39,992 nt of DNA from a virus (Duplodnaviria; Heunggongvirae; Uroviricota; Caudoviricetes): positions 1 through 39,992 of the IMG/VR virus record IMGVR_UViG_2875722834_000002; one strand, given 5' to 3'. Numbering within the stretch: the stretch's first letter is position 1; every line of letters begins with the position of its first letter. The notes beneath the pieces are model-generated. The model was not told where the DNA came from and made no database searches. It was given only the letters and a program-made list of their open reading frames with translations. A program made the translations under genes and the position numbers. Shown here piece after piece: positions 3,067 through 16,392 of the stretch.

Positions 3067-3620
3067 TTGCGTAACTCCGATAACTCGTTAAAACGTTCCA
3101 TAAACATCCCGTAGGCATGGCCTGGTGACAGTGGAATAACTTTGAACATCTCTGTCGCCGGGATACCTTCCAGTACAGGCCAGAAAGAGCCATCATCAAG
3201 CCCGAGATCGCGGCGTTCGGTTGCCAGCATAATGAGATCGGCATATTTCACTGGCGTGCTCATAACAGGAGGTAACCCGTATTTCTCACGGATTACGGCG
3301 TCTATTTTTTCTTCCATCCGTTTATAGTCAGGAAGAAGGCGTTTCAGTGGTGCGGGGATGTCCTGGCAATATGCTTCTGTTGCATCATGCATTAACGCTT
3401 CAAAAGCAAATTCCTGCGGTACCAGCTGGCTGCAAAGCACCGCATGTTGGGCGACGCTGTAGAAGTGTGAAAGATGTCCTGCAAAGCGACAGATATTTGA
3501 AAGGGAAACCGCGACATCGTTAATAACGATGTCGTCTTTATTTATCCTGTCATAATAAAAATGCTTCCCGGAAAAAGTTTTAATAAATGACATTTTATTC
3601 TCCACGTATATGCGCTGCAC
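3057..3620 (-). CDS. HD-domain 5'-deoxynucleotidase (YfdR-like)
   Basis: HD phosphohydrolase signature (H...HD...D) in ...FAGHLSHFYSVAQHAV...ALMHDATEAYCQDIP...; order and size match CPS-53 yfdR. Confidence 0.7.
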   Translation of the reverse strand: MQRIYVENKMSFIKTFSGKHFYYDRINKDDIVINDVAVSLSNICRFAGHLSHFYSVAQHAVLCSQLVPQEFAFEALMHDATEAYCQDIPAPLKRLLPDYKRMEEKIDAVIREKYGLPPVMSTPVKYADLIMLATERRDLGLDDGSFWPVLEGIPATEMFKVIPLSPGHAYGMFMERFNELSELRKCA

Positions 3621-7544: not shown

Positions 7545-8486
7545 ATGAGCACTAAATTAACCGGCTATGTATGGGATGGTTGCGCTGCATCAGGCATGAA
7601 ATTATCCAGCGTGGCAATTATGGCCCGCCTGGCTGATTTCAGTAATGACGAAGGTGTGTGCTGGCCATCAATTGAAACTATTGCCCGTCAGATTGGCGCG
7701 GGGATGAGTACCGTCAGGACGGCTATCGCACGGCTGGAAGCAGAAGGCTGGTTAACGCGTAAGGCGCGTCGCCAGGGTAACCGCAATGCGTCGAATGTTT
7801 ATCAGCTTAACGTTGCGAAGCTTCAGGCAGCGGCATTTTCTCAACTGTCAGATTCTGACCCGTCAAAATCTGACGCATCAAAATCTGACCCGTCAAAATT
7901 TGATGCGTCGAAATCTGGCAAAAAAGCGGGTTTTCACCCGTCAGAATCTGGCGGGGATCCGTCAGTAAAATCAAAACATGATCCGTCAGATAAAAAACCT
8001 TCTCGTCCGGACGCTTCGCAACCGGACACGCAGACGGATGAACAGGATTTTTTAACTCGCCATCCTGATGCGGTTGTATTCAGCCCTAAAAAGCGCCAGT
8101 GGGGAACGCAGGATGATTTGACCTGCGCACAGTGGCTCTGGAAAAAAATCATCGCCCTGTACGAGCAGGCTGCCGAATGTGACGGCGAGGTGGTTCGTCC
8201 CAAAGAACCGAACTGGACAGCCTGGGCAAACGAAATTCGCCTGATGTGTGTGCAGGATGGTCGTACTCACAAACAAATCTGCGAGATGTACAGCCGCGTC
8301 AGCCGCGATCCGTTCTGGTGCCGTAACGTGCTCAGCCCGTCGAAGTTGCGGGAAAAATGGGATGAGCTTTCCCTGCGCTTATCACCGTCCGTCAGCACGT
8401 ACACCGAAAAACGCGAAGACCCGTACTTCAAATCCAGTTACGACAACGTGGACTACAGCCAGATCCCGGCAGGATTCAGGGGGTGA
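7545..8486 (+). CDS. Replication initiation / replisome-organiser protein (lambda O-like, N-terminal winged HTH)
   Basis: N-terminal HTH-like region, internal Ser/Asp/Lys-rich linker encoded by iteron repeats, located after the cro/YdaT-like genes. Confidence 0.7.
   Translation: MSTKLTGYVWDGCAASGMKLSSVAIMARLADFSNDEGVCWPSIETIARQIGAGMSTVRTAIARLEAEGWLTRKARRQGNRNASNVYQLNVAKLQAAAFSQLSDSDPSKSDASKSDPSKFDASKSGKKAGFHPSESGGDPSVKSKHDPSDKKPSRPDASQPDTQTDEQDFLTRHPDAVVFSPKKRQWGTQDDLTCAQWLWKKIIALYEQAAECDGEVVRPKEPNWTAWANEIRLMCVQDGRTHKQICEMYSRVSRDPFWCRNVLSPSKLREKWDELSLRLSPSVSTYTEKREDPYFKSSYDNVDYSQIPAGFRG
7847..7998 (+). repeat. Iteron array inside the O-like gene (putative phage replication origin)
   Basis: About 8 imperfect copies of a 15-bp unit cGTCAaAATCTGAC(c/g) (e.g. 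7861-7875, 7876-7890, 7891-7905), ending in ccgtcagataaaaaac. Confidence 0.6.
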
Positions 8487-8977
8487 TCATGAGTCTTTTG
8501 AATGAAGTTCAGAAATTCATTGAAGCCCATCCGGGATGTACTTCCGGAGACATTGCGGATGCTTTTGCAGGTTACTCACGGCAGCGCGTTCTGCAGTCAG
8601 CAAGCAAGTTACGTCAGAGTGGGCGTGTGGCTCACCGTTGTGAAGGAGATACACGCAGACATTTCCCGCGCCTGACTGAGAGAGCGCAGGAACCGGAACC
8701 ACAACCAGTTCGAGAAACCAGACCTGTGCGCAATTTCTATGTCGGCACTAACGATCCACGGGTGATTTTGTGCCTGACCCGCCAGGCTGAAGAACTGGAG
8801 TCCAGGGGCTTATACCGTCGTGCTGCAACCGTGTGGATGGCGGCATTCCGTGAAAGCCACTCCCAGCCAGAACGAAACAATTTTCTGGCGCGTCGTGAGC
8901 GGTGCTTACGGAAAAGCAGCAAGCGCGCTGCATCGGGTGAAGAGTGGTATCTGTCAGGGAATTACGTGGGGGCTTAA
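8483..8977 (+). CDS. PerC-family transcriptional activator-like protein
   Basis: C-terminal ...RQAEELESRGLYRRAATVWMAAF...ARRERC resembles the PerC family motif. Confidence 0.55.
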   Translation: MIMSLLNEVQKFIEAHPGCTSGDIADAFAGYSRQRVLQSASKLRQSGRVAHRCEGDTRRHFPRLTERAQEPEPQPVRETRPVRNFYVGTNDPRVILCLTRQAEELESRGLYRRAATVWMAAFRESHSQPERNNFLARRERCLRKSSKRAASGEEWYLSGNYVGA

Positions 8978-9630
8978 TGAGTAATAAATATTGCCAGGCG
9001 CTGGTGGAACTGCGGAACAAACCAGCCCATGAACTGAAGGAAGTGGGCGATCAGTGGCGCACGCCGGACAACATTTTCTGGGGAATTAACACCCTGTTTG
9101 GCCCGTTTGTTCTGGATCTGTTTACTGACGGTGATAACGCCAAATGTGCCGCGTATTACACGGCGGAAGATAACGCGCTGGCGCATGACTGGTCAGAACG
9201 TCTTGCGGAGCTTAAAGGTGCTGCCTTTGGTAATCCCCCATACAGCCGCGCCAGTCAGCATGAGGGGCAATACATCACCGGCATGCGTTACATCATGAAA
9301 CATGCCAGTGCCATGCGTGATAAGGGCGGGCGCTATGTTTTCCTGATCAAAGCTGCCACCAGCGAAGTGTGGTGGCCGGAAGATGCGGACCATATTGCTT
9401 TTATTCGCGGGCGTATTGGTTTTGAACTGCCTGCCTGGTTTATCCCGAAGGACGAGAAGCAGGTGCCGACAGGAGCGTTCTTCGCTGGTGCTATTGCTGT
9501 TTTCGACAAGACCTGGAAGGGACCGGCAATCAGCTACATCGGGCGCGATGAACTTGAGGCATGTGGTGAGGCCTTTCTGGCGCAGGTTCGCCAGCAGGCA
9601 GAAAAACTTGTCAGGGAGATGGCGGCATGA
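8977..9630 (+). CDS. Phage Dam-like DNA N6-adenine methyltransferase
   Basis: Start at 8977 (TAATG overlap with the upstream stop); catalytic NPPY motif in ...GAAFGNPPYSRASQ... Confidence 0.75.
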   Translation: MSNKYCQALVELRNKPAHELKEVGDQWRTPDNIFWGINTLFGPFVLDLFTDGDNAKCAAYYTAEDNALAHDWSERLAELKGAAFGNPPYSRASQHEGQYITGMRYIMKHASAMRDKGGRYVFLIKAATSEVWWPEDADHIAFIRGRIGFELPAWFIPKDEKQVPTGAFFAGAIAVFDKTWKGPAISYIGRDELEACGEAFLAQVRQQAEKLVREMAA

Positions 9631-9953
9631 CGACGTTAACTCAATGCCAGCAGCAGGTGCTGGATATGCTGATTTCTTACCAGAAAGAGCGTGGCTTTCC
9701 GCCAACCAATCAGGAGGTGGCAACCATGCTGGGATACCGTTCAGTGAATGCAGCGGTAGAGCATCTTCGCGCACTGGAGAAAAAAGGCGTCATCACGATA
9801 AAGCGTGGCGTGGCCCGGGGGATAACGCTTCATACCGCGGTGAAGGACGACGACAGCGAGGCGGTCGGGATTATCCGCGCACTGCTTGCCGGTGAGGAAA
9901 ACGCAAGGCTGCGTGCAGCCCACTGGTTACATGAGAGGGGCCTGAAAGTATGA
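9627..9953 (+). CDS. LexA-N-terminal-like winged-helix DNA-binding protein
   Basis: 108 aa; N-terminus QQQVLDMLISYQKERGFPPTNQEVATMLGYRS resembles the LexA DNA-binding domain. Confidence 0.5.
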   Translation: MTTLTQCQQQVLDMLISYQKERGFPPTNQEVATMLGYRSVNAAVEHLRALEKKGVITIKRGVARGITLHTAVKDDDSEAVGIIRALLAGEENARLRAAHWLHERGLKV

Positions 9954-11169: not shown

Positions 11170-12165
11170 GTGACCGTGAGAGCACTACTGACCCCTGAAA
11201 TTGCCCCGCGTATGGGGATTGTATTGTTCAGACCAGGTTCAGAGCTGATGCCCCTGTTTATGCAGGGGCGTGTCCTGCTGGAGCCTGAGCCGGAACGTTA
11301 TTCATCTTTCGCCAGTGGTGCCGTTCCGGCGGCATCACAACCGCTGGCGGATGATCCTGCCGTTAGGGCCGTGTTCCGCAATGAGGCAGTGATCCGTCGT
11401 GCTGGTGGCGTGGAATGTCTTGAAAGCTGGTTACTTCGTGAAAAAGGCTGCCAGTGGCCTCATTCCGACTGGCACAGCGAGAACATGACCACAATGCGAC
11501 ACGCGCCGGGCGCGATCCGTCTGTGCTGGCACTGCGATAACCAGCTGCGCGATCAGTTCACGGAACGGCTGGAATCAATGGCAACGGATAACTGTGCCCG
11601 CTGGGTGTTGTCTGTAGTCCGTCTGGATCTCGGTTTTGATGATAACCATGCCGTGACAATGCCGGAACTGTGCTGGTGGCTGATTCGTAATGACCTGGCG
11701 GATGCCTTACCGGAAAGTGCAGCCCGTAAGGCACTGAGATTACCGAAGCCTGTTGTGCCGTCTGTCACCCGGGAAAGTGACCTTGTGCCTTCGGTTCCTG
11801 CCACCAGCATCATCCAGGATAAGGCGAAAAAGGTGCTGGCGCTGAAAGTGGATCCGGAGTCGCCGGAGTCTTTTATGTTACGCCCAAAACGCCGCCGCTG
11901 GGTTAATGAAAAGTACACGCGCTGGGTTAAGACACAGCCGTGTGCATGTTGTGGAAAGCCTGCTGATGATCCCCACCACCTGATAGGCCACGGTCAGGGT
12001 GGAATGGGTACAAAAGCGCATGACCTCTTTGTGTTGCCTTTGTGCAGAAAGCATCACGACGAGCTGCATGCGGATACCGTGGCATTTGAAGAGAAGTATG
12101 GCTCTCAGCTGGAGCTGATATTTCGTTTTATCGATCGTGCGCTGGCAATTGGCGTATTGGCGTAA
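11170..12165 (+). CDS. DUF968-like phage protein with C-terminal HNH-like Cys/His cluster
   Basis: GTG start at 11170; C-terminal CACCGKPADDPHHLIGHG...CRKHHDELH. Confidence 0.6.
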   Translation: MTVRALLTPEIAPRMGIVLFRPGSELMPLFMQGRVLLEPEPERYSSFASGAVPAASQPLADDPAVRAVFRNEAVIRRAGGVECLESWLLREKGCQWPHSDWHSENMTTMRHAPGAIRLCWHCDNQLRDQFTERLESMATDNCARWVLSVVRLDLGFDDNHAVTMPELCWWLIRNDLADALPESAARKALRLPKPVVPSVTRESDLVPSVPATSIIQDKAKKVLALKVDPESPESFMLRPKRRRWVNEKYTRWVKTQPCACCGKPADDPHHLIGHGQGGMGTKAHDLFVLPLCRKHHDELHADTVAFEEKYGSQLELIFRFIDRALAIGVLA

Positions 12166-12178
12166 GTGGAGAACGAGC

Positions 12179-12931
12179 ATGAACCTTGAAGCCTTACCAA
12201 AATATTACTCCCCAAAATCTCCAAAATTGAGCGATGACGCACCGGCGACAGGCTCAGGTGGTTTAACGATTACGGATGTGATGGCTGCGCAGGGGATGGT
12301 GCAGTCGAAAGCACCGCTTGGGTTTGCCTTATTCCTGGCAAAAGTTGGTGTTCAGGATCCTCAATTTGCGATTGAAGGTCTGCTCAATTACGCGATGGCA
12401 CTGGATAACCCGACATTGAACAAATTGAGTGAAGAAACCCGGTTACAGATCATCCCTTACCTTGTGAATTTTGCCTTTGCTGATTATTCCAGGTCTGCGG
12501 CAAGTAAGGCTCGCTGTGAGCATTGTGCTGGTACTGGATTTCATAATGTATTGCGCGAAGTGGTGAAACACTCCAGAAGCGGGGAATCTGTTATCAAGGA
12601 AGAGTGGGTGAAGGAACTATGTCAGCATTGTCATGGTAAGGGAGAAGTCAGCACAGCGTGCAGAGGGTGTAAGGGTAAAGGTATTGTCCTGGATGAAAAA
12701 AGGACCCGGCTTCATGGCACGCCTGTTTATAAGATTTGTGGGCGTTGCAATGGAAACCGGTTTAGCCGTTTACCAACCACACTGGCGCGGCATCATGTCC
12801 AGAAGCTGGTACCAGACCTGACGGATTATCAGTGGTACAAAGGATATGCAGATGTCATTGATAAACTGGTTACAAAGTGCTGGCAGGAAGAAGCATATGC
12901 AGAGATACAATTGAGAAAGGTGACAAGATAA
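12179..12931 (+). CDS. Late-gene antiterminator Q
   Basis: ATG at 12179 with GGAG RBS; zinc-binding CxxC...CxxC cluster (CEHCAGTG...CQHCHGKG); sits directly upstream of a promoter/terminator pair and the lysis cassette. Confidence 0.7.
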   Translation: MNLEALPKYYSPKSPKLSDDAPATGSGGLTITDVMAAQGMVQSKAPLGFALFLAKVGVQDPQFAIEGLLNYAMALDNPTLNKLSEETRLQIIPYLVNFAFADYSRSAASKARCEHCAGTGFHNVLREVVKHSRSGESVIKEEWVKELCQHCHGKGEVSTACRGCKGKGIVLDEKRTRLHGTPVYKICGRCNGNRFSRLPTTLARHHVQKLVPDLTDYQWYKGYADVIDKLVTKCWQEEAYAEIQLRKVTR

Positions 12932-12962
12932 ATGGTTTTCGCCGAAGATGACGACATGATGC

Positions 12963-12991
12963 TTGCATTTTTCAAAAAATATGGATAAGAT
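12963..12991 (+). promoter_or_regulatory. Putative late promoter (PR'-like)
   Basis: -35 TTGCAT (12963-12968), 17-nt spacer, -10 TAAGAT (12986-12991), just downstream of Q. Confidence 0.4.
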
Positions 12992-13039
12992 TTTCCCAAC
13001 GATGGGCTTTGTATGTCTACCGTTGATAAGATTTAGGAA

Positions 13040-13062
13040 CCCGCCACTGAGCGGGTTTTTTG
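13040..13062 (+). terminator. tR'-like intrinsic terminator (expected target of Q antitermination)
   Basis: Hairpin cccgc-cactga-gcggg followed by TTTTTT, about 50-65 nt after the putative late promoter. Confidence 0.55.
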
Positions 13063-13159
13063 TACCTGTAAACTTGGTGCAGTACAGTAAACACGCTGGT
13101 GGTCGTGAATACTGACTTTTTATCTTGCTGGATTTTTAGACAAGAGTTATTGGTATGTC

Positions 13160-13387
13160 ATGTTAACCAGAAGGGAAAAAGACATGCTAAAACAGAAAGA
13201 TATGACAGAAACCGCCGCCGCAGTCCTTCATTTCTTACCTGCTGACAAGTGGGTAACGCCACGCATGATGACGAGAACTACCGGAGTAAGCGAAGCCCGG
13301 TGCCAGTTAATACTGACTCAGTTAGTTCTGGCGGGTCTGGCGAAGGATAACGGCGGGTACGGGAATAAATTCAGACGCTGCCAGTAA
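13160..13387 (+). CDS. Small winged-helix protein, PapI/FaeA-like (putative); start may be the internal ATG at 13184
   Basis: 75-aa ORF; central region ...VLHFLPADKWVTPRMMTRTTGVSEARCQLILTQLVLAGLAKD resembles FaeA/PapI regulators. Confidence 0.45.
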   Translation: MLTRREKDMLKQKDMTETAAAVLHFLPADKWVTPRMMTRTTGVSEARCQLILTQLVLAGLAKDNGGYGNKFRRCQ

Positions 13388-13537
13388 TGGCGGTTTCCTG
13401 CTGTGAAAATGGGCGGCTGGTGGGTGTTGGTAGCACCTGCCAGCCATTCGCTCATGCTTACTGGTCACAAGCGAACCACGGCCCACTGCTTTAGCGCAAA
13501 AGCAGAGTGAGCCTACCAGAGTTACGCTTACTGATCC

Positions 13538-14590
13538 ATGAAAAATACTGTAAAAATAAACAGTGTTGATTTAATCAACGCTGATTGCCTGCATTTTATT
13601 CAGTCCTTGCCTGATGATTCCATTGATCTGATTGTTACCGATCCGCCGTACTTCAAAGTGAAGCCCAACGGCTGGGACAATCAGTGGAAAGGGGACGAAG
13701 ATTACCTGAAGTGGCTGGACTACTGTCTGGCCCAGTTCTGGCGGGTACTGAAACCAGCCGGAAGCCTTTACCTGTTCTGTGGACATCGCCTCGCATCTGA
13801 TATCGAGATCATGATGCGTGAACGTTTCAACGTGCTTAACCATATCATCTGGGCGAAGCCGTCCGGACGATGGAACGGGTGTAATAAAGAAAGCCTGCGG
13901 GCATATTTCCCCGCTACAGAGCGCGTTCTGTTTGCTGAACATTACCAGGGGCCATATCGCGGCAAAAGTGACGGCTATGCGGCAAAAGAAAGGGAACTCA
14001 AACAGCACATAATGGCACCGCTGATATCGTATTTCAGGGATGCTCGTGCCGAACTGGGTATAACGGCAAAACAAATTGCCGAAGCCACAGGTAAGAAAAA
14101 TATGGTTTCCCACTGGTTTGGTGCCAGTCAGTGGCAGTTGCCGAATGAGGCTGACTATCGGAAGTTACAGGCACTGTTTTCCCGTATAGCGGCAGAGAAG
14201 TTTCAGGAACAACAACTGGAACAACCACACCACCAGCTGGTGGCATCTTATGATTCACTGAATCGCAAATATTCTGAATTGCTGGATGAGTTTAAATCTC
14301 TCCGGCGCTATTTCTCCGTATCAGTCTCCGTGCCTTATACCGATGTCTGGACGCATAAGCCCGTTCAGTTCTACCCGGGTAAACATCCGTGCGAGAAACC
14401 GGCGGATATGCTCCGGCAAATAATCAATGCCAGTAGTCGACCTGGTGATCTGGTTGCTGATTTCTTTATGGGATCCGGTTCCACAATAAAAGCAGCAATG
14501 GCGCTGGGGCGTCGGGCGTTAGGTGTTGAACTTGAGTCAGAGCGGTTTAATCAGACGGTGAAAGAGGTAAGTGAACTGGTGGGGAAATAA
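13538..14590 (+). CDS. Orphan DNA methyltransferase (DPPY motif; N6-adenine or N4-cytosine class)
   Basis: Catalytic motif IVTDPPYF near the N-terminus and an AdoMet-binding-like FFMGSGST near the C-terminus; no adjacent restriction endonuclease. Confidence 0.8.
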   Translation: MKNTVKINSVDLINADCLHFIQSLPDDSIDLIVTDPPYFKVKPNGWDNQWKGDEDYLKWLDYCLAQFWRVLKPAGSLYLFCGHRLASDIEIMMRERFNVLNHIIWAKPSGRWNGCNKESLRAYFPATERVLFAEHYQGPYRGKSDGYAAKERELKQHIMAPLISYFRDARAELGITAKQIAEATGKKNMVSHWFGASQWQLPNEADYRKLQALFSRIAAEKFQEQQLEQPHHQLVASYDSLNRKYSELLDEFKSLRRYFSVSVSVPYTDVWTHKPVQFYPGKHPCEKPADMLRQIINASSRPGDLVADFFMGSGSTIKAAMALGRRALGVELESERFNQTVKEVSELVGK

Positions 14591-14596
14591 TTCTGG

Positions 14597-14623
14597 TGGC
14601 CACGTTGCGTGGCCTTTTTATTT
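14597..14623 (+). terminator. Intrinsic terminator after the methyltransferase gene
   Basis: Hairpin tggccacg-ttg-cgtggcc followed by tttttatttcc. Confidence 0.6.
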
Positions 14624-14666: not shown

Positions 14667-15002
14667 ATGCCTCATAACCCAAATACCTGGCCGGACTGGC
14701 TGGAGTTGTTTCAGAGCTGGTGGCGTGGAGACACACCGCTGGGTGCAGTGATTATGTCGATCGTTATGGCTGGTTTGCGCATCGCCTATTTTGGCGGTGG
14801 TGGTGGCTGGAAGCGAAAAACGCTCGAGATTTTGCTATGTGGCGCTCTGACGCTGACCTTTGCATCCGCTCTTGAATATGTCGGATGGCCTAAATCGCTT
14901 TCTGTTGCCATTGGTGGTGGCGTGGGGCTGATCGGTGTCGATGCTATTCGTGGGGCTGCAATGCGAGTAATCGGTAACAAATTTGGTAGCTCGAAGGAGT
15001 AA
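14667..15002 (+). CDS. Holin (lambda S-like class I)
   Basis: ATG at 14667; about 111 aa with hydrophobic transmembrane segments and a charged C-terminus; first gene of the lysis cassette. Confidence 0.75.
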   Translation: MPHNPNTWPDWLELFQSWWRGDTPLGAVIMSIVMAGLRIAYFGGGGGWKRKTLEILLCGALTLTFASALEYVGWPKSLSVAIGGGVGLIGVDAIRGAAMRVIGNKFGSSKE

Positions 15003-15005
15003 TTT

Positions 15006-15482
15006 ATGCAGGCACTAAATTCCCAGCGTAAAGCTTTCCTGGATATGGTGGCATGGTCAGAAGGAACGGATAACGGGCGACAACCGACACGTAACCACGG
15101 TTATGATGTTATTGTTGGTGGCGAACTGTTCACTGATTACTCCGATCACCCTCGCAAACTTGTCACGCTAAACCCCAAACTCAAATCAACAGCTGCCGGA
15201 CGTTACCAGCTTCTTTCACGCTGGTGGGATGCTTACCGTAAACAGCTTGGCCTGAAAGATTTTTCTCCAGAAAGCCAGGACGCTGTAGCTCTGCAGCAGA
15301 TTAAAGAGCGTGGTGCTTTACCGATGATTGACCGCGGCAGTATTCGTCAGGCAATCGACCGTTGCAGCAATATCTGGGCGTCGTTACCTGGTGCAGGTTA
15401 CGGTCAGTATGAACATAAAATCGGTGACCTGATTGCCCGATTTAAAAAAGCTGGTGGGGTAGTAAATGAAGCTGAGATATAA
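15006..15482 (+). CDS. Endolysin, lambda R-type lytic transglycosylase
   Basis: Near-identity over long stretches to lambda R as recalled (NSQRKAFLDMVAWSEGTDNGRQ...HGYDVIVGGELFTDYSDHPRKLVTLNPKLKST...GRYQLLSRWWDAYRKQLGLKDFSP). Confidence 0.9.
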   Translation: MQALNSQRKAFLDMVAWSEGTDNGRQPTRNHGYDVIVGGELFTDYSDHPRKLVTLNPKLKSTAAGRYQLLSRWWDAYRKQLGLKDFSPESQDAVALQQIKERGALPMIDRGSIRQAIDRCSNIWASLPGAGYGQYEHKIGDLIARFKKAGGVVNEAEI

Positions 15483-15858
15483 GCTGGTTATTGTTGCCTT
15501 CGTTGTTAGCGTCATTGGTTCCTTCATCTGGTCTGCTGGACATTACTACAGCAAATATCAGCACGAAAAGGAGCGTGCTGATGAGGCTGTACGAAATGCT
15601 GAATCAGCAACTGCCATTACCCGTAACGTTCTGCAATCACTGCAAATCATCAATACAGTTATAGAGGCTAACCAGCATGCAAAACAGCAGATCGCACTGG
15701 AGTCACAGAGAACCCAGGAAGATATCAAAGTGGCTGTTGCGGATGATGATTGTGCTTCACGTCATGTGCCTGCTGCCGCTGCTGACCGGTTGCGGAAGTA
15801 CGCGAACAGTTTACGTACCGATTCCGGCGGTACCGTTGCCAGCAAGCCTGACTACTGA
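15466..15858 (+). CDS. i-spanin (Rz-like)
   Basis: N-terminal TM segment (LVIVAFVVSVIGSFIW) then a charged helical periplasmic domain; overlaps the endolysin 3' end. Confidence 0.7.
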   Translation: MKLRYKLVIVAFVVSVIGSFIWSAGHYYSKYQHEKERADEAVRNAESATAITRNVLQSLQIINTVIEANQHAKQQIALESQRTQEDIKVAVADDDCASRHVPAAAADRLRKYANSLRTDSGGTVASKPDY

Positions 15859-16015
15859 AACTCCCCAGCCAGTCATTCCCGAGCCGCTGACCTATGGGGC
15901 CAGTCTGGATCTGAATGTGAGCCTGCTTTCGGCGTTGGGACAATGCAATATTGACAAAGCGGGGATTCGAAGTATCGAGATGCGCCGTAACGCTTTGCTG
16001 GCAGCAGGCAAATAG
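15743..16015 (+). CDS. o-spanin (Rz1-like lipoprotein), overlapping and extending past Rz in another frame
   Basis: Signal peptide with lipobox MMIVLHVMCLLPLLTGC followed by a Pro-rich sequence. Confidence 0.65.
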   Translation: MMIVLHVMCLLPLLTGCGSTRTVYVPIPAVPLPASLTTETPQPVIPEPLTYGASLDLNVSLLSALGQCNIDKAGIRSIEMRRNALLAAGK

Positions 16016-16041: not shown

Positions 16042-16392
16042 ATGCCCCCTCGAACTCCAAAAGCCTGCCGCGTTCGCGGCTGCCGTAATACCACGACAGA
16101 CCCGTCAGGCTACTGCGAAAGCCACAAAAGCGAAGGCTGGAAGCAATACAAGTCAGGACAATCCCGTCATCAGCGCGGTTATGGTTCTAAGTGGGATGTT
16201 ATCCGTGTGCGTGTGCTGCAACGTGACAAAGGCCTGTGTCAGTTATGTCTGCGTGCTGGTGTGGCGCGTGAAGCGAAAACCGTTGACCACATCATCCCTA
16301 AAGTACATGGCGGCACTGATGCCGACAGTAATCTGCAGAGTCTGTGCTGGCCGTGTCATAAGGCGAAGACGGCCCGTGAACGGCTTAAGTGA
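16042..16392 (+). CDS. HNH endonuclease (packaging-associated, HK97 gp74-like)
   Basis: Cys/His motifs CRVRGCRN...C...H and ...VDHIIPKVHGGTDADSNLQSLCWPCHKAK; directly upstream of TerS/TerL. Confidence 0.8.
   Translation: MPPRTPKACRVRGCRNTTTDPSGYCESHKSEGWKQYKSGQSRHQRGYGSKWDVIRVRVLQRDKGLCQLCLRAGVAREAKTVDHIIPKVHGGTDADSNLQSLCWPCHKAKTARERLK

Follow-up and report, generated by a model that had tools for sequence, protein, structure and literature searches.

How does a temperate phage keep and dose a methyltransferase that is toxic if expressed constitutively? This question has so far not been addressed, and we consider it here for a locus whose anatomy offers a testable answer. The locus lies in a stretch of 39,992 nucleotides (IMG/VR record IMGVR_UViG_2875722834_000002, positions 1 to 39,992; the whole stretch is called the window below), which is an SfV-like lambdoid prophage of Escherichia coli, and it occupies the interval between the antiterminator gene Q and the holin gene (12932–14623). 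Within this interval are, in order, a gene for a small protein with a predicted winged-helix fold, a conserved structured leader RNA, and a gene for an adenine DNA methyltransferase (methylase) of the M.EcoGI/GII family. We consider it likely that these constitute a three-part late-operon cassette, made up of the winged-helix gene, a hairpin plus a leader of ∼135 nt, and an M.EcoGII-family methylase for late anti-restriction, the whole being closed by a terminator. The answer proposed thus has as its parts two terminators in series, a leader that would hide a start site lacking a Shine-Dalgarno sequence, and a linked winged-helix protein.

The cassette as such is ordinary. The gene pair already has database entries (SfV orf47/orf48), and much is known about the enzyme family. 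The interval is 99.9% identical to that of E. coli strain E1, 98.6% identical to phage vB_EcoM-720R4, and has 96.7% DNA identity to phage SfV; among 5426 complete E. coli genomes, 1855 have the cassette, whole or in part. The family is thus present in about one third of complete E. coli genomes, and it occurs upstream of stx in several Shiga-toxin phage types. One of its enzymes is sold as a reagent (EcoGII) and is used in chromatin and RNA footprinting. A first-pass annotation, made from the letters of the window, had described a promoter/terminator pair, a small open reading frame (ORF), a 350-aa methylase with a DPPY motif, and a terminator of the methylase's own between Q and the holin gene, and each of these features was found where it had been placed.

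The methylase gene (13538–14590, + strand, 350 aa) encodes a beta-class N6-adenine DNA methyltransferase. Pfam PF01555 (N6_N4_Mtase) matches residues 29–341 at E 3e-42, and the order of the motifs is that of the beta class, with DPPY (residues 35–38, nt 13640–13651) followed by the recognition region and then by FxGxG, here FFMGSG at residues 309–314 (near nt 14465). NCBIfam gave sub-threshold matches only, to YhdJ-type (PRK11524) and CcrM-type models. The alignment with M.EcoGII is full-length and collinear, includes the central recognition region (residues ∼160–237), and has 283 of 349 residues identical (81%), 91% positives, and two gaps, both of which are probably machine-reading errors in the published text (the sequence was taken from the supplement of PMC11551740). 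Closer still are SfV orf48 (98.9% identical) and, likewise, the mEp460, cdtI, and Ayreon proteins; copies in Stx2c phages are 85% identical, and those of phiP27, phage 1720a-02, and many Stx2a phages 81%–83%. More distant are N15 gp52, PY54 ORF60, and proteins of Serratia, Providencia, and Morganella phages, at 56%–65% identity (by record, Serratia OS31 64.5%, PY54 60.6%, and N15 56.1%). As the first-pass annotation had noted, the gene has no nuclease partner: the neighbors are Q on one side and the lysis genes S, R, Rz, and Rz1 on the other, and PADLOC returned MTase_II models only. The enzyme is therefore a prophage-borne orphan without a cognate nuclease.

What such an enzyme does can be judged from its characterized relatives. 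M.EcoGII methylates adenine in any context, accepts single-stranded DNA and RNA as substrates as well, and is active alone when cloned; it is unexpressed in its native lysogen, its expression slows growth, and its authors take it to be turned on by the departing prophage as a means of overcoming restriction (PMC5778455). Two M.EcoGI/GII homologs in O111 Shiga toxin-producing E. coli gave no extra motif in single-molecule real-time (SMRT) sequencing data (PMC6602927). The Serratia enzyme OS31 p25, whose gene is directly before the holin gene, was shown experimentally to have “extremely relaxed” specificity, and Aeromonas ARM81ld p56 was reported to be nonspecific (PMC7556043). M.EcoGII and its reconstructed variants (SUPREM, Anc291) were reported to be largely non-sequence-specific (PMC11551740). 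Because nonspecific enzymes have been characterized both nearer and farther in the family, adenine methylation without sequence specificity, yielding N6-methyladenine (m6A), is the best inference for the window methylase. The suggestion of an epigenetic or anti-restriction module expressed late accordingly divides: the late anti-restriction part agrees with the literature on the family (PMC5778455) and with the position behind tR′, and the epigenetic part does not stand, given that the relatives are nonspecific and silent in lysogens. For the same reason, a negative motif test in the lysogen would not refute a function. A lysogen methylome is expected to show no new motif, and the informative samples are virion DNA or induced cells.

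How, then, might the enzyme be dosed? Directly 5′ of the methylase ATG, the nucleotide sequence itself is conserved over ∼140 nt, whichever of the three reading frames is considered. This conservation persists down to methylase identities of 62%–65%, and the leader is the most conserved noncoding sequence of the locus. We built a covariance model (R1) from 44 sequences with four hand-drawn helices. In the window it has a single match at 13397–13540 (147.9 bits, E 4e-39), covering the structured leader of the methylase mRNA (13402–13537, + strand). Across 86 loci, it detects a single copy in each of 61, and this copy always ends at the methylase ATG. The leader DNA pattern occurs in 121 IMG/VR copies, with the methylase at the expected offset except in four recombinants (see below) and a few copies cut by contig ends; full-length leader copies all abut the methylase, also where the winged-helix gene is absent.

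The RNA structure is evident from covariation, which was tested on the model alignment, with structure strings rebuilt from the reference row, against 500 shuffles and slid controls. Over the whole fold, 91% of cells are paired and 15 pairs have changes on both sides; none of the 500 shuffles reaches the observed values, and the slid controls give 27%–43% pairing. Helix P1 (UGGGC at 13410–13414 with GCCCA at 13481–13485, + strand) closes a junction holding P2 and P3, and is paired in 99% of cells, with one compensatory change, from G-C to A-U, in locus L108. Helix P2 (13415–13426 with 13434–13445, + strand) has changes on both sides in eight of 10 pairs and occurs in variants such as GGCUGG/CCAGCC, ACUGU/ACAGU, and GCAGA/UCUGC. 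Helix P3 (UUCGCU at 13447–13452 with AGCGAA at 13470–13475, + strand), whose loop bears the anti-RBS (anti-ribosome-binding site) sequence GGUCAC, is 87.7% paired; one of its positions is C-G in 30 sequences, A-U in 10, U-A in eight, and U-G in five, and its covariation score is reached by none of the 500 shuffles. Helix P4 (CUGCUUU at 13486–13492 with AAAGCAG at 13499–13505, + strand) has compensatory variants in N15, PY54, and the Ewingella/Hafnia group. The G-U pairs are found on the + strand, and therefore the mRNA strand is the folded strand. RNAalifold, run on a MAFFT alignment, recovered P1 and P2 and missed most of P3 and P4.

We could not find a previous description of this leader RNA. 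Rfam 15 gave no match overlapping the window leader at E ≤ 1, and no match at E ≤ 0.1 for the leaders of the N15, PY54, phiP27, Hafnia, Providencia, and Lonsdalea loci. In the literature, a full-text look-up of strings of the leader sequence found nothing, and a keyword look-up on the gene context of the methylase returned only an unrelated Variovorax phage paper.

The region around the methylase start codon has no Shine-Dalgarno sequence. There is only a UGAUC element, 1 nt 5′ of the AUG, which could pair with GAUCA of the 3′ tail of 16S rRNA, at the position of an extended Shine-Dalgarno helix. An alternative long-range helix can form between the anti-RBS segment GGUCACAAGCG (13463–13473) and CGCUUACUGAUC (13525–13536), which is directly before the AUG (both + strand). 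As GGUCACAAGCG comprises the loop and 3′ strand of P3, the alternative helix and P3 are mutually exclusive. The two share AAGCG, and a change of the shared A to G is accompanied by changes in both partner columns. Across 61 sequences the alternative helix is 87.4% paired, with compensatory changes at four to five positions, and it beats the shuffles both on cells paired and on covariation score (score, 0/500). It should be noted that this pairing was left out of the covariance model, so the alignment was not fitted to it. ViennaRNA also predicts the start region to be paired, with a mean probability of ∼0.65, and most often to the GGUCACAAGCG segment.

The leader thus has a compensated secondary structure, is folded on the mRNA strand, and adjoins the start codon, as would an RNA that sequesters a ribosome-binding site. 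Its anatomy suggests an expression platform that hides this site and so has a regulatory function; probably the leader is a translational brake on a toxic enzyme. The trigger could be kinetic folding, a ligand such as S-adenosylmethionine or S-adenosylhomocysteine, the small protein, or the enzyme itself. As a separate observation, a GATC (Dam) site (window 13535–13538) overlaps the ribosome-binding region of the methylase (CUGAUCC-AUG) and is kept across genera within the UGAUC element.

The placement of the cassette bears on when it is expressed. The Q gene (12179–12931, + strand) is identified by Pfam Antiterm (PF03589, E 1e-53), by phrog_127 (E 2e-108), and by the RefSeq annotation of a 99.9% identical locus, from which the start is taken (the longest ORF begins with GTG at 12137). 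Behind it is a candidate for a pR′-like late promoter, read by eye (TTGCAT-17-TAAGAT, 12963–12991, + strand), and its position after Q and before tR′, corresponding to SfV, suggests that it is pR′. The intrinsic terminator tR′ (13038–13063, + strand; AACCCGC-CACTGA-GCGGGTT, with a 7-bp stem and 6-nt loop, then T6) was missed by the terminator scanner and was read from the sequence; SfV has an annotated rho-independent terminator at the corresponding place. The terminator 3′ of the methylase gene (14598–14623, + strand; GGCCACG-TTG-CGTGGCC, then a T-run) is a scanner match with seven pairs, six of them G-C, and is annotated also in SfV and Ayreon. Next comes the lysis cassette, and the sequence of Q, promoter-like site, tR′, and then holin, endolysin, and spanins is that of a lambdoid late operon. 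Placement of the methylase cassette directly before the lysis genes is shared by SfV, Ayreon, N15, PY54, and OS31. Between tR′ and the methylase, the scanner found a single weak promoter-like site on the + strand (13242–13269), which is inside the small ORF. In the same region, the − strand across from tR′ and the beginning of the small-ORF region (window 13029–13165) gave a sub-threshold Rfam match to the Salmonella small RNA STnc130 (27.7 bits vs. a gathering threshold of 55, E 0.16), which is probably a chance match.

A second potential stop precedes the leader. The hairpin P0 (GCUGCC-AGUAAU-GGCGGU, then UUCCU; 13377–13399, + strand) is a degenerate terminator whose loop contains the stop codon of the small ORF. 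A stable hairpin is found immediately 5′ of the leader in 55 of 62 sequences, with a U-rich tail in 34, and its stem sequence varies by lineage. Depending on the locus, this hairpin is tR′ itself, a terminator ending the small ORF, or the annotated late terminator of N15; in loci that lack the small ORF, tR′ occupies the place of P0.

That Shiga-toxin phages use the interval between Q and S for stx, as had been pointed out for this locus from established knowledge, is well illustrated by two relatives. In phiP27, the pair of small ORF and methylase comes after Q and is itself followed by tRNA genes and stx; the engineered phage 1720a-02 has a disrupted copy of stx2A downstream from the pair. 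The cassette therefore coexists with stx in the Q-to-lysis interval. Ayreon (L001, 1630–2313), mEp460, and Stx2c phages have an extra insert of ∼680 nt between tR′ and the winged-helix ORF, with a 141-aa ORF that has no Pfam family and a terminator of its own; the slot after tR′ thus takes further morons.

From these parts the following mechanism can be proposed. In the lysogen, transcription from pR′ would end at tR′, and leakage would end at the hairpin before the leader, as suggested by their positions and by the silence of M.EcoGI/GII. With stops at both places, the enzyme, toxic if constitutive, would stay silent in the lysogen, a state that the position behind tR′ and the literature both point to, and a closed leader would be a further safeguard. 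Upon induction, Q-modified RNA polymerase would pass tR′, the hairpin, and the terminator after the methylase, such that the cassette would be co-expressed with the lysis and head/tail genes. Late, Q-dependent expression of this kind would explain the published silence of M.EcoGI/GII-type enzymes in lysogens. The enzyme would then methylate adenines of the replicating phage DNA in essentially any context, judging from its 81% identity to M.EcoGII and its nonspecific relatives, and packaged genomes would thereby be pre-protected against many m6A-sensitive restriction systems of the next host. The amount of enzyme would be limited by the leader, in which GGUCACAAGCG would pair either with the 5′ strand of P3, leaving the start region free, or with the start region, which would then be sequestered.

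The remaining part of the cassette is the small gene (13184–13387, + strand; 67 aa from the RefSeq start, ATG 13184), for which an in-frame ATG upstream, at 13160, would give 75 aa (13160–13387). That this is a real gene is well supported. It matches phrog_331 (unknown function) at E 9e-26 and has 70 homologs, typically of 67 aa, a few of which are named as TrmB-family or IscR-family regulators or have a DprA_WH Pfam match. In 29 distinct DNA versions from several genera, the helix RCQL(I/L)LTQ is encoded with every synonymous codon, and such turnover over a kept helix indicates selection at the protein level. An AlphaFold (AF2) model from 21 sequences (predicted local distance difference test score, pLDDT, 87.3) has the topology H-H-H-strand-strand, with helices at residues 2–17, 26–33, and 37–49 and strands at 53–55 and 63–65, that is, three helices and a beta wing. 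The model supports a generic winged-helix fold. Among the top 50 Foldseek matches to it are Zalpha, IclR N-terminal, TrmBL2, and SelB domains, with TM scores of 0.7–0.83 (Zalpha and IclR-type) and E-values of 4e-3 or worse. Pfam matches are weak and generic (TrmB, MarR_2, DprA_WH), and for the window protein they are below the curated cut-offs. The likeness to Zalpha was set aside, given a TM score of 0.83 with E 4e-3 or worse, 10%–16% identity, and no counterpart of the residues that we take to contact Z-DNA.

Of the labels “PapI/FaeA-like” and “winged-helix-like” that the first-pass annotation gave to this protein, only the second can be kept. The predicted fold is indeed a winged helix, but none of 25 family members tested matches Pfam FaeA (PF04703) at E ≤ 1, and PapI is absent from the top 50 Foldseek structural neighbors. 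In SfV, Ayreon, phiP27, 1720a-02, and the surveyed species and IMG/VR loci, the gene has tR′ on one side and the methylase on the other, within a phage late operon, and is never in a fimbrial control region. We therefore reject membership in PapI/FaeA on the Pfam scan, the Foldseek ranking, and the nonfimbrial location.

The small gene is closely associated with the methylase. Among 80 species-level loci, ∼57 have its end 100–155 nt 5′ of the methylase. Of the 121 IMG/VR copies, 117 have enough upstream sequence, and 104 of these contain it. In all 56 phage records that have it, it is placed ∼350 nt upstream of the methylase. (The protein-based scan of IMG/VR gave only copies that are at least 98% identical, so the diversity is drawn from the species-level genome scan.) We could not find an earlier description of this near-exclusive association. 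The small gene is absent from ∼21 of the 80 species loci and from nine IMG/VR copies, all of which keep the leader and the methylase. Conversely, four IMG/VR recombinants (L186, L227, L253, and L273) retain the small ORF without the methylase. In these, the leader is cut right after P2 and the methylase is replaced by an ORF of ∼240 aa; the next ORF is a candidate DUF1737/NanS-p esterase by likeness seen by eye. They represent a recombination junction inside the leader that has orphaned the winged-helix gene. One IMG/VR contig (L231) has two copies of the small ORF plus leader ∼3 kb apart (402–422 and 3388–3408, − strand), one before an N-terminus identical to that of M.EcoGII at the contig end and the other before a methylase broken by an N and a rearrangement; chimeric assembly or a junction between tandem prophages could explain it.

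Within the small protein, helix 3 (RCQLILTQL) is invariant, and helices 1–2 and the wing occur in several alleles. The window allele is ∼50% identical to SfV orf47 in helices 1–2 and the wing, while the adjacent methylases are 99% identical, and the parts therefore reassort. N15 and PY54 have a distant homolog (∼20% identity) upstream of the annotated late promoter. The Q gene of N15 presumably lies in immB, and the idea that gp51 is N15's Q was dropped. Overall, the small protein is conserved, almost exclusively co-located with the methylase, and dispensable for the cassette. Our guess is that it is a nucleic-acid-binding modulator of methylase expression or activity.

Should the small protein be given a larger role? 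It is possible, although we hold this only tentatively, that the ∼135-nt leader (13402–13537) is a cis-regulatory RNA of an undescribed class, a conformational switch that responds to a ligand, a protein, or methylation and gates translation of the toxic methylase, with the winged-helix protein as its trans-acting partner or as a reader of methylated DNA. A more specific proposal, which we find rather unlikely, would make the winged-helix protein a controller dedicated to the methylase, similar to a C protein or a translational repressor: by binding the enzyme or the leader, the latter as RNA or as DNA, it would set when methylation occurs or how far it goes. The gene's location almost only upstream of the methylase is what would be expected of such a controller, as are the invariance of helix 3 alongside variable helices 1–2 and wing, the exceptional conservation of the adjoining leader, and the presence of an RNA-binding SelB domain and Zalpha domains among the structural neighbors. 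However, the loci that keep leader and methylase without the small gene manage without it, its alleles reassort freely against methylase types, the distant homolog of N15 and PY54 is upstream of the late promoter, and M.EcoGII works alone when cloned (PMC5778455). Far less probable again is an epigenetic module active in the lysogen, in which a sequence-specific orphan methylase would be paired, on the pattern of pap phase variation, with a PapI-like co-regulator able to read methylation states. The predicted winged-helix fold, the terminator after the methylase (a moron-like look), the weak promoter-like site in the small ORF, and the GATC site at the methylase start codon could all be cited for it. 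These are outweighed, in our judgment, by the lack of any FaeA or PapI match as described above, by the absence of a fimbrial or Lrp context, by relatives that are nonspecific and silent in lysogens, and by the position of the cassette behind tR′ and a second hairpin.

The alternatives for the leader concern whether the conserved 135 nt are a regulatory RNA at all. They might instead be a gene for a leader peptide (MGGWWVL...), a site acting at the DNA level, or a hitch-hiking recombination module. In the window, ATG 13410 does open an ORF of 33 codons, recombination junctions do occur inside the block, and the block is so highly conserved that many columns never vary. Yet neither frame nor length is conserved: of 61 sequences, 24 have a stop after seven codons, different frames are seen elsewhere, and we rejected the ORF as coding. 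The compensatory changes in four helices, the restriction of G-U pairs to the + strand, and the fixed position abutting the ATG, whatever lies upstream, likewise argue for RNA, and make a non-RNA explanation improbable.

Several points nevertheless weigh against the late, leader-gated cassette that we prefer. For P3 taken alone, the count of pairs changed on both sides is not above shuffles (465/500), and the same is true of the alternative helix (38/500), whose outermost pair is missing from roughly half of the sequences; these two helices are supported by their cell counts and covariation scores, measures that can be inflated by relatedness. The N15 and PY54 leaders score low with the model (61–75 bits), and the Xenorhabdus and Photorhabdus loci have a shorter, different leader. 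In the latter (L139–L141, L143, L144, L147, L149, L151, L152, L155–L165, and L167), the methylases are 64%–65% identical, the winged-helix ORF is present, and the leader, which the covariance model misses, consists of a single long hairpin in which GUGAAAUGGGCG and a P2-like stem are retained. The 19% divergence from M.EcoGII reaches the target-recognition region, so that some sequence preference is possible. The hexamers of the pR′ candidate are weak and fail the scanner's rule of 4/6 plus 4/6, and late, Q-dependent expression of the methylase is deduced from position only. Finally, nothing links the winged-helix protein mechanistically to the enzyme.

Other features of the window provide the wider context. 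The lysis cassette (14667–16015, + strand) comprises holin S (14667–15002; PF05106, E 6e-27), endolysin R (15006–15482; phrog_90), Rz (15466–15858), and Rz1 (∼15836–16015), and these genes are also in the RefSeq annotation. An HNH protein farther on (16042–16392) is taken to be the packaging HNH because it adjoins a P27-family small terminase. No tRNA genes were found in the window. The early/nin region encodes a further adenine methyltransferase (8977–9630, + strand), which belongs to the phage Dam family (PF05869, E 1e-45) and whose gene is between those for a PerC-like protein (8483–8977) and a protein with a LexA DNA-binding domain (9627–9953); the prophage therefore has an early Dam-family enzyme and a late, presumably promiscuous one. 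At the left end of the prophage (1–1049, + strand), a SocA/Panacea-domain protein (1–582, PF13274) is followed by an overlapping 156-aa ORF without a Pfam family, possibly as a toxin-antitoxin pair. Elsewhere, at the Hafnia psychrotolerans locus (L145, 4782–4928), a Sib antitoxin RNA (RF00113, 105 bits) is just 3′ of the methylase.

It is useful to compare the cassette with systems that are already known. PapI/FaeA (PF04703) resembles the small protein in being a stand-alone winged helix of ∼70 aa encoded near an adenine-methylation function, but the small protein has no profile match to that family and belongs to a phage late operon rather than to a fimbrial switch with Lrp/GATC boxes. With regulators that hide a ribosome-binding site (riboswitch platforms, RNA thermometers, and kinetic folding traps, of which the leader of the MS2 maturation gene is an example), the leader has in common two exclusive helices that share one segment, one helix that covers the start region, a multihelix fold with conserved junction nucleotides, and a gene whose dose has to be limited. 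Unlike them, it matches no Rfam family.

For the enzyme, the obvious comparison is with M.EcoGII and M.EcoGI of the E. coli O104:H4 C227-11 prophages (PMC5778455), which have the same beta-class motif order, are of 349/350 aa, and are also prophage orphans. M.EcoGII differs from the window methylase in 19% of residues, some of them in the recognition region. The paper describing these enzymes does not mention the Q-tR′ context, the leader, or the small ORF (PMC5778455). In IMG/VR L231, an M.EcoGII-type N-terminus has this leader and small ORF before it. The methylase family is shared more widely with OS31 p25, ARM81ld p56, N15 gp52, and PY54 ORF60, which differ from the window in belonging to linear-plasmid prophages or to other hosts; as in the window, the gene is directly before the holin gene in OS31, N15, and PY54. 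The same cassette is found in SfV (orf47-orf48, NC_003444), mEp460, the cdtI phage, Ayreon, and Stx2c, Stx2a, and Stx2e (phiP27) phages. Among these, phiP27 is distinguished by tRNA genes and stx after the methylase, and SfV, which carries a different allele of the small ORF (orf47), corresponds to the window in its locus, gene order, and terminators.

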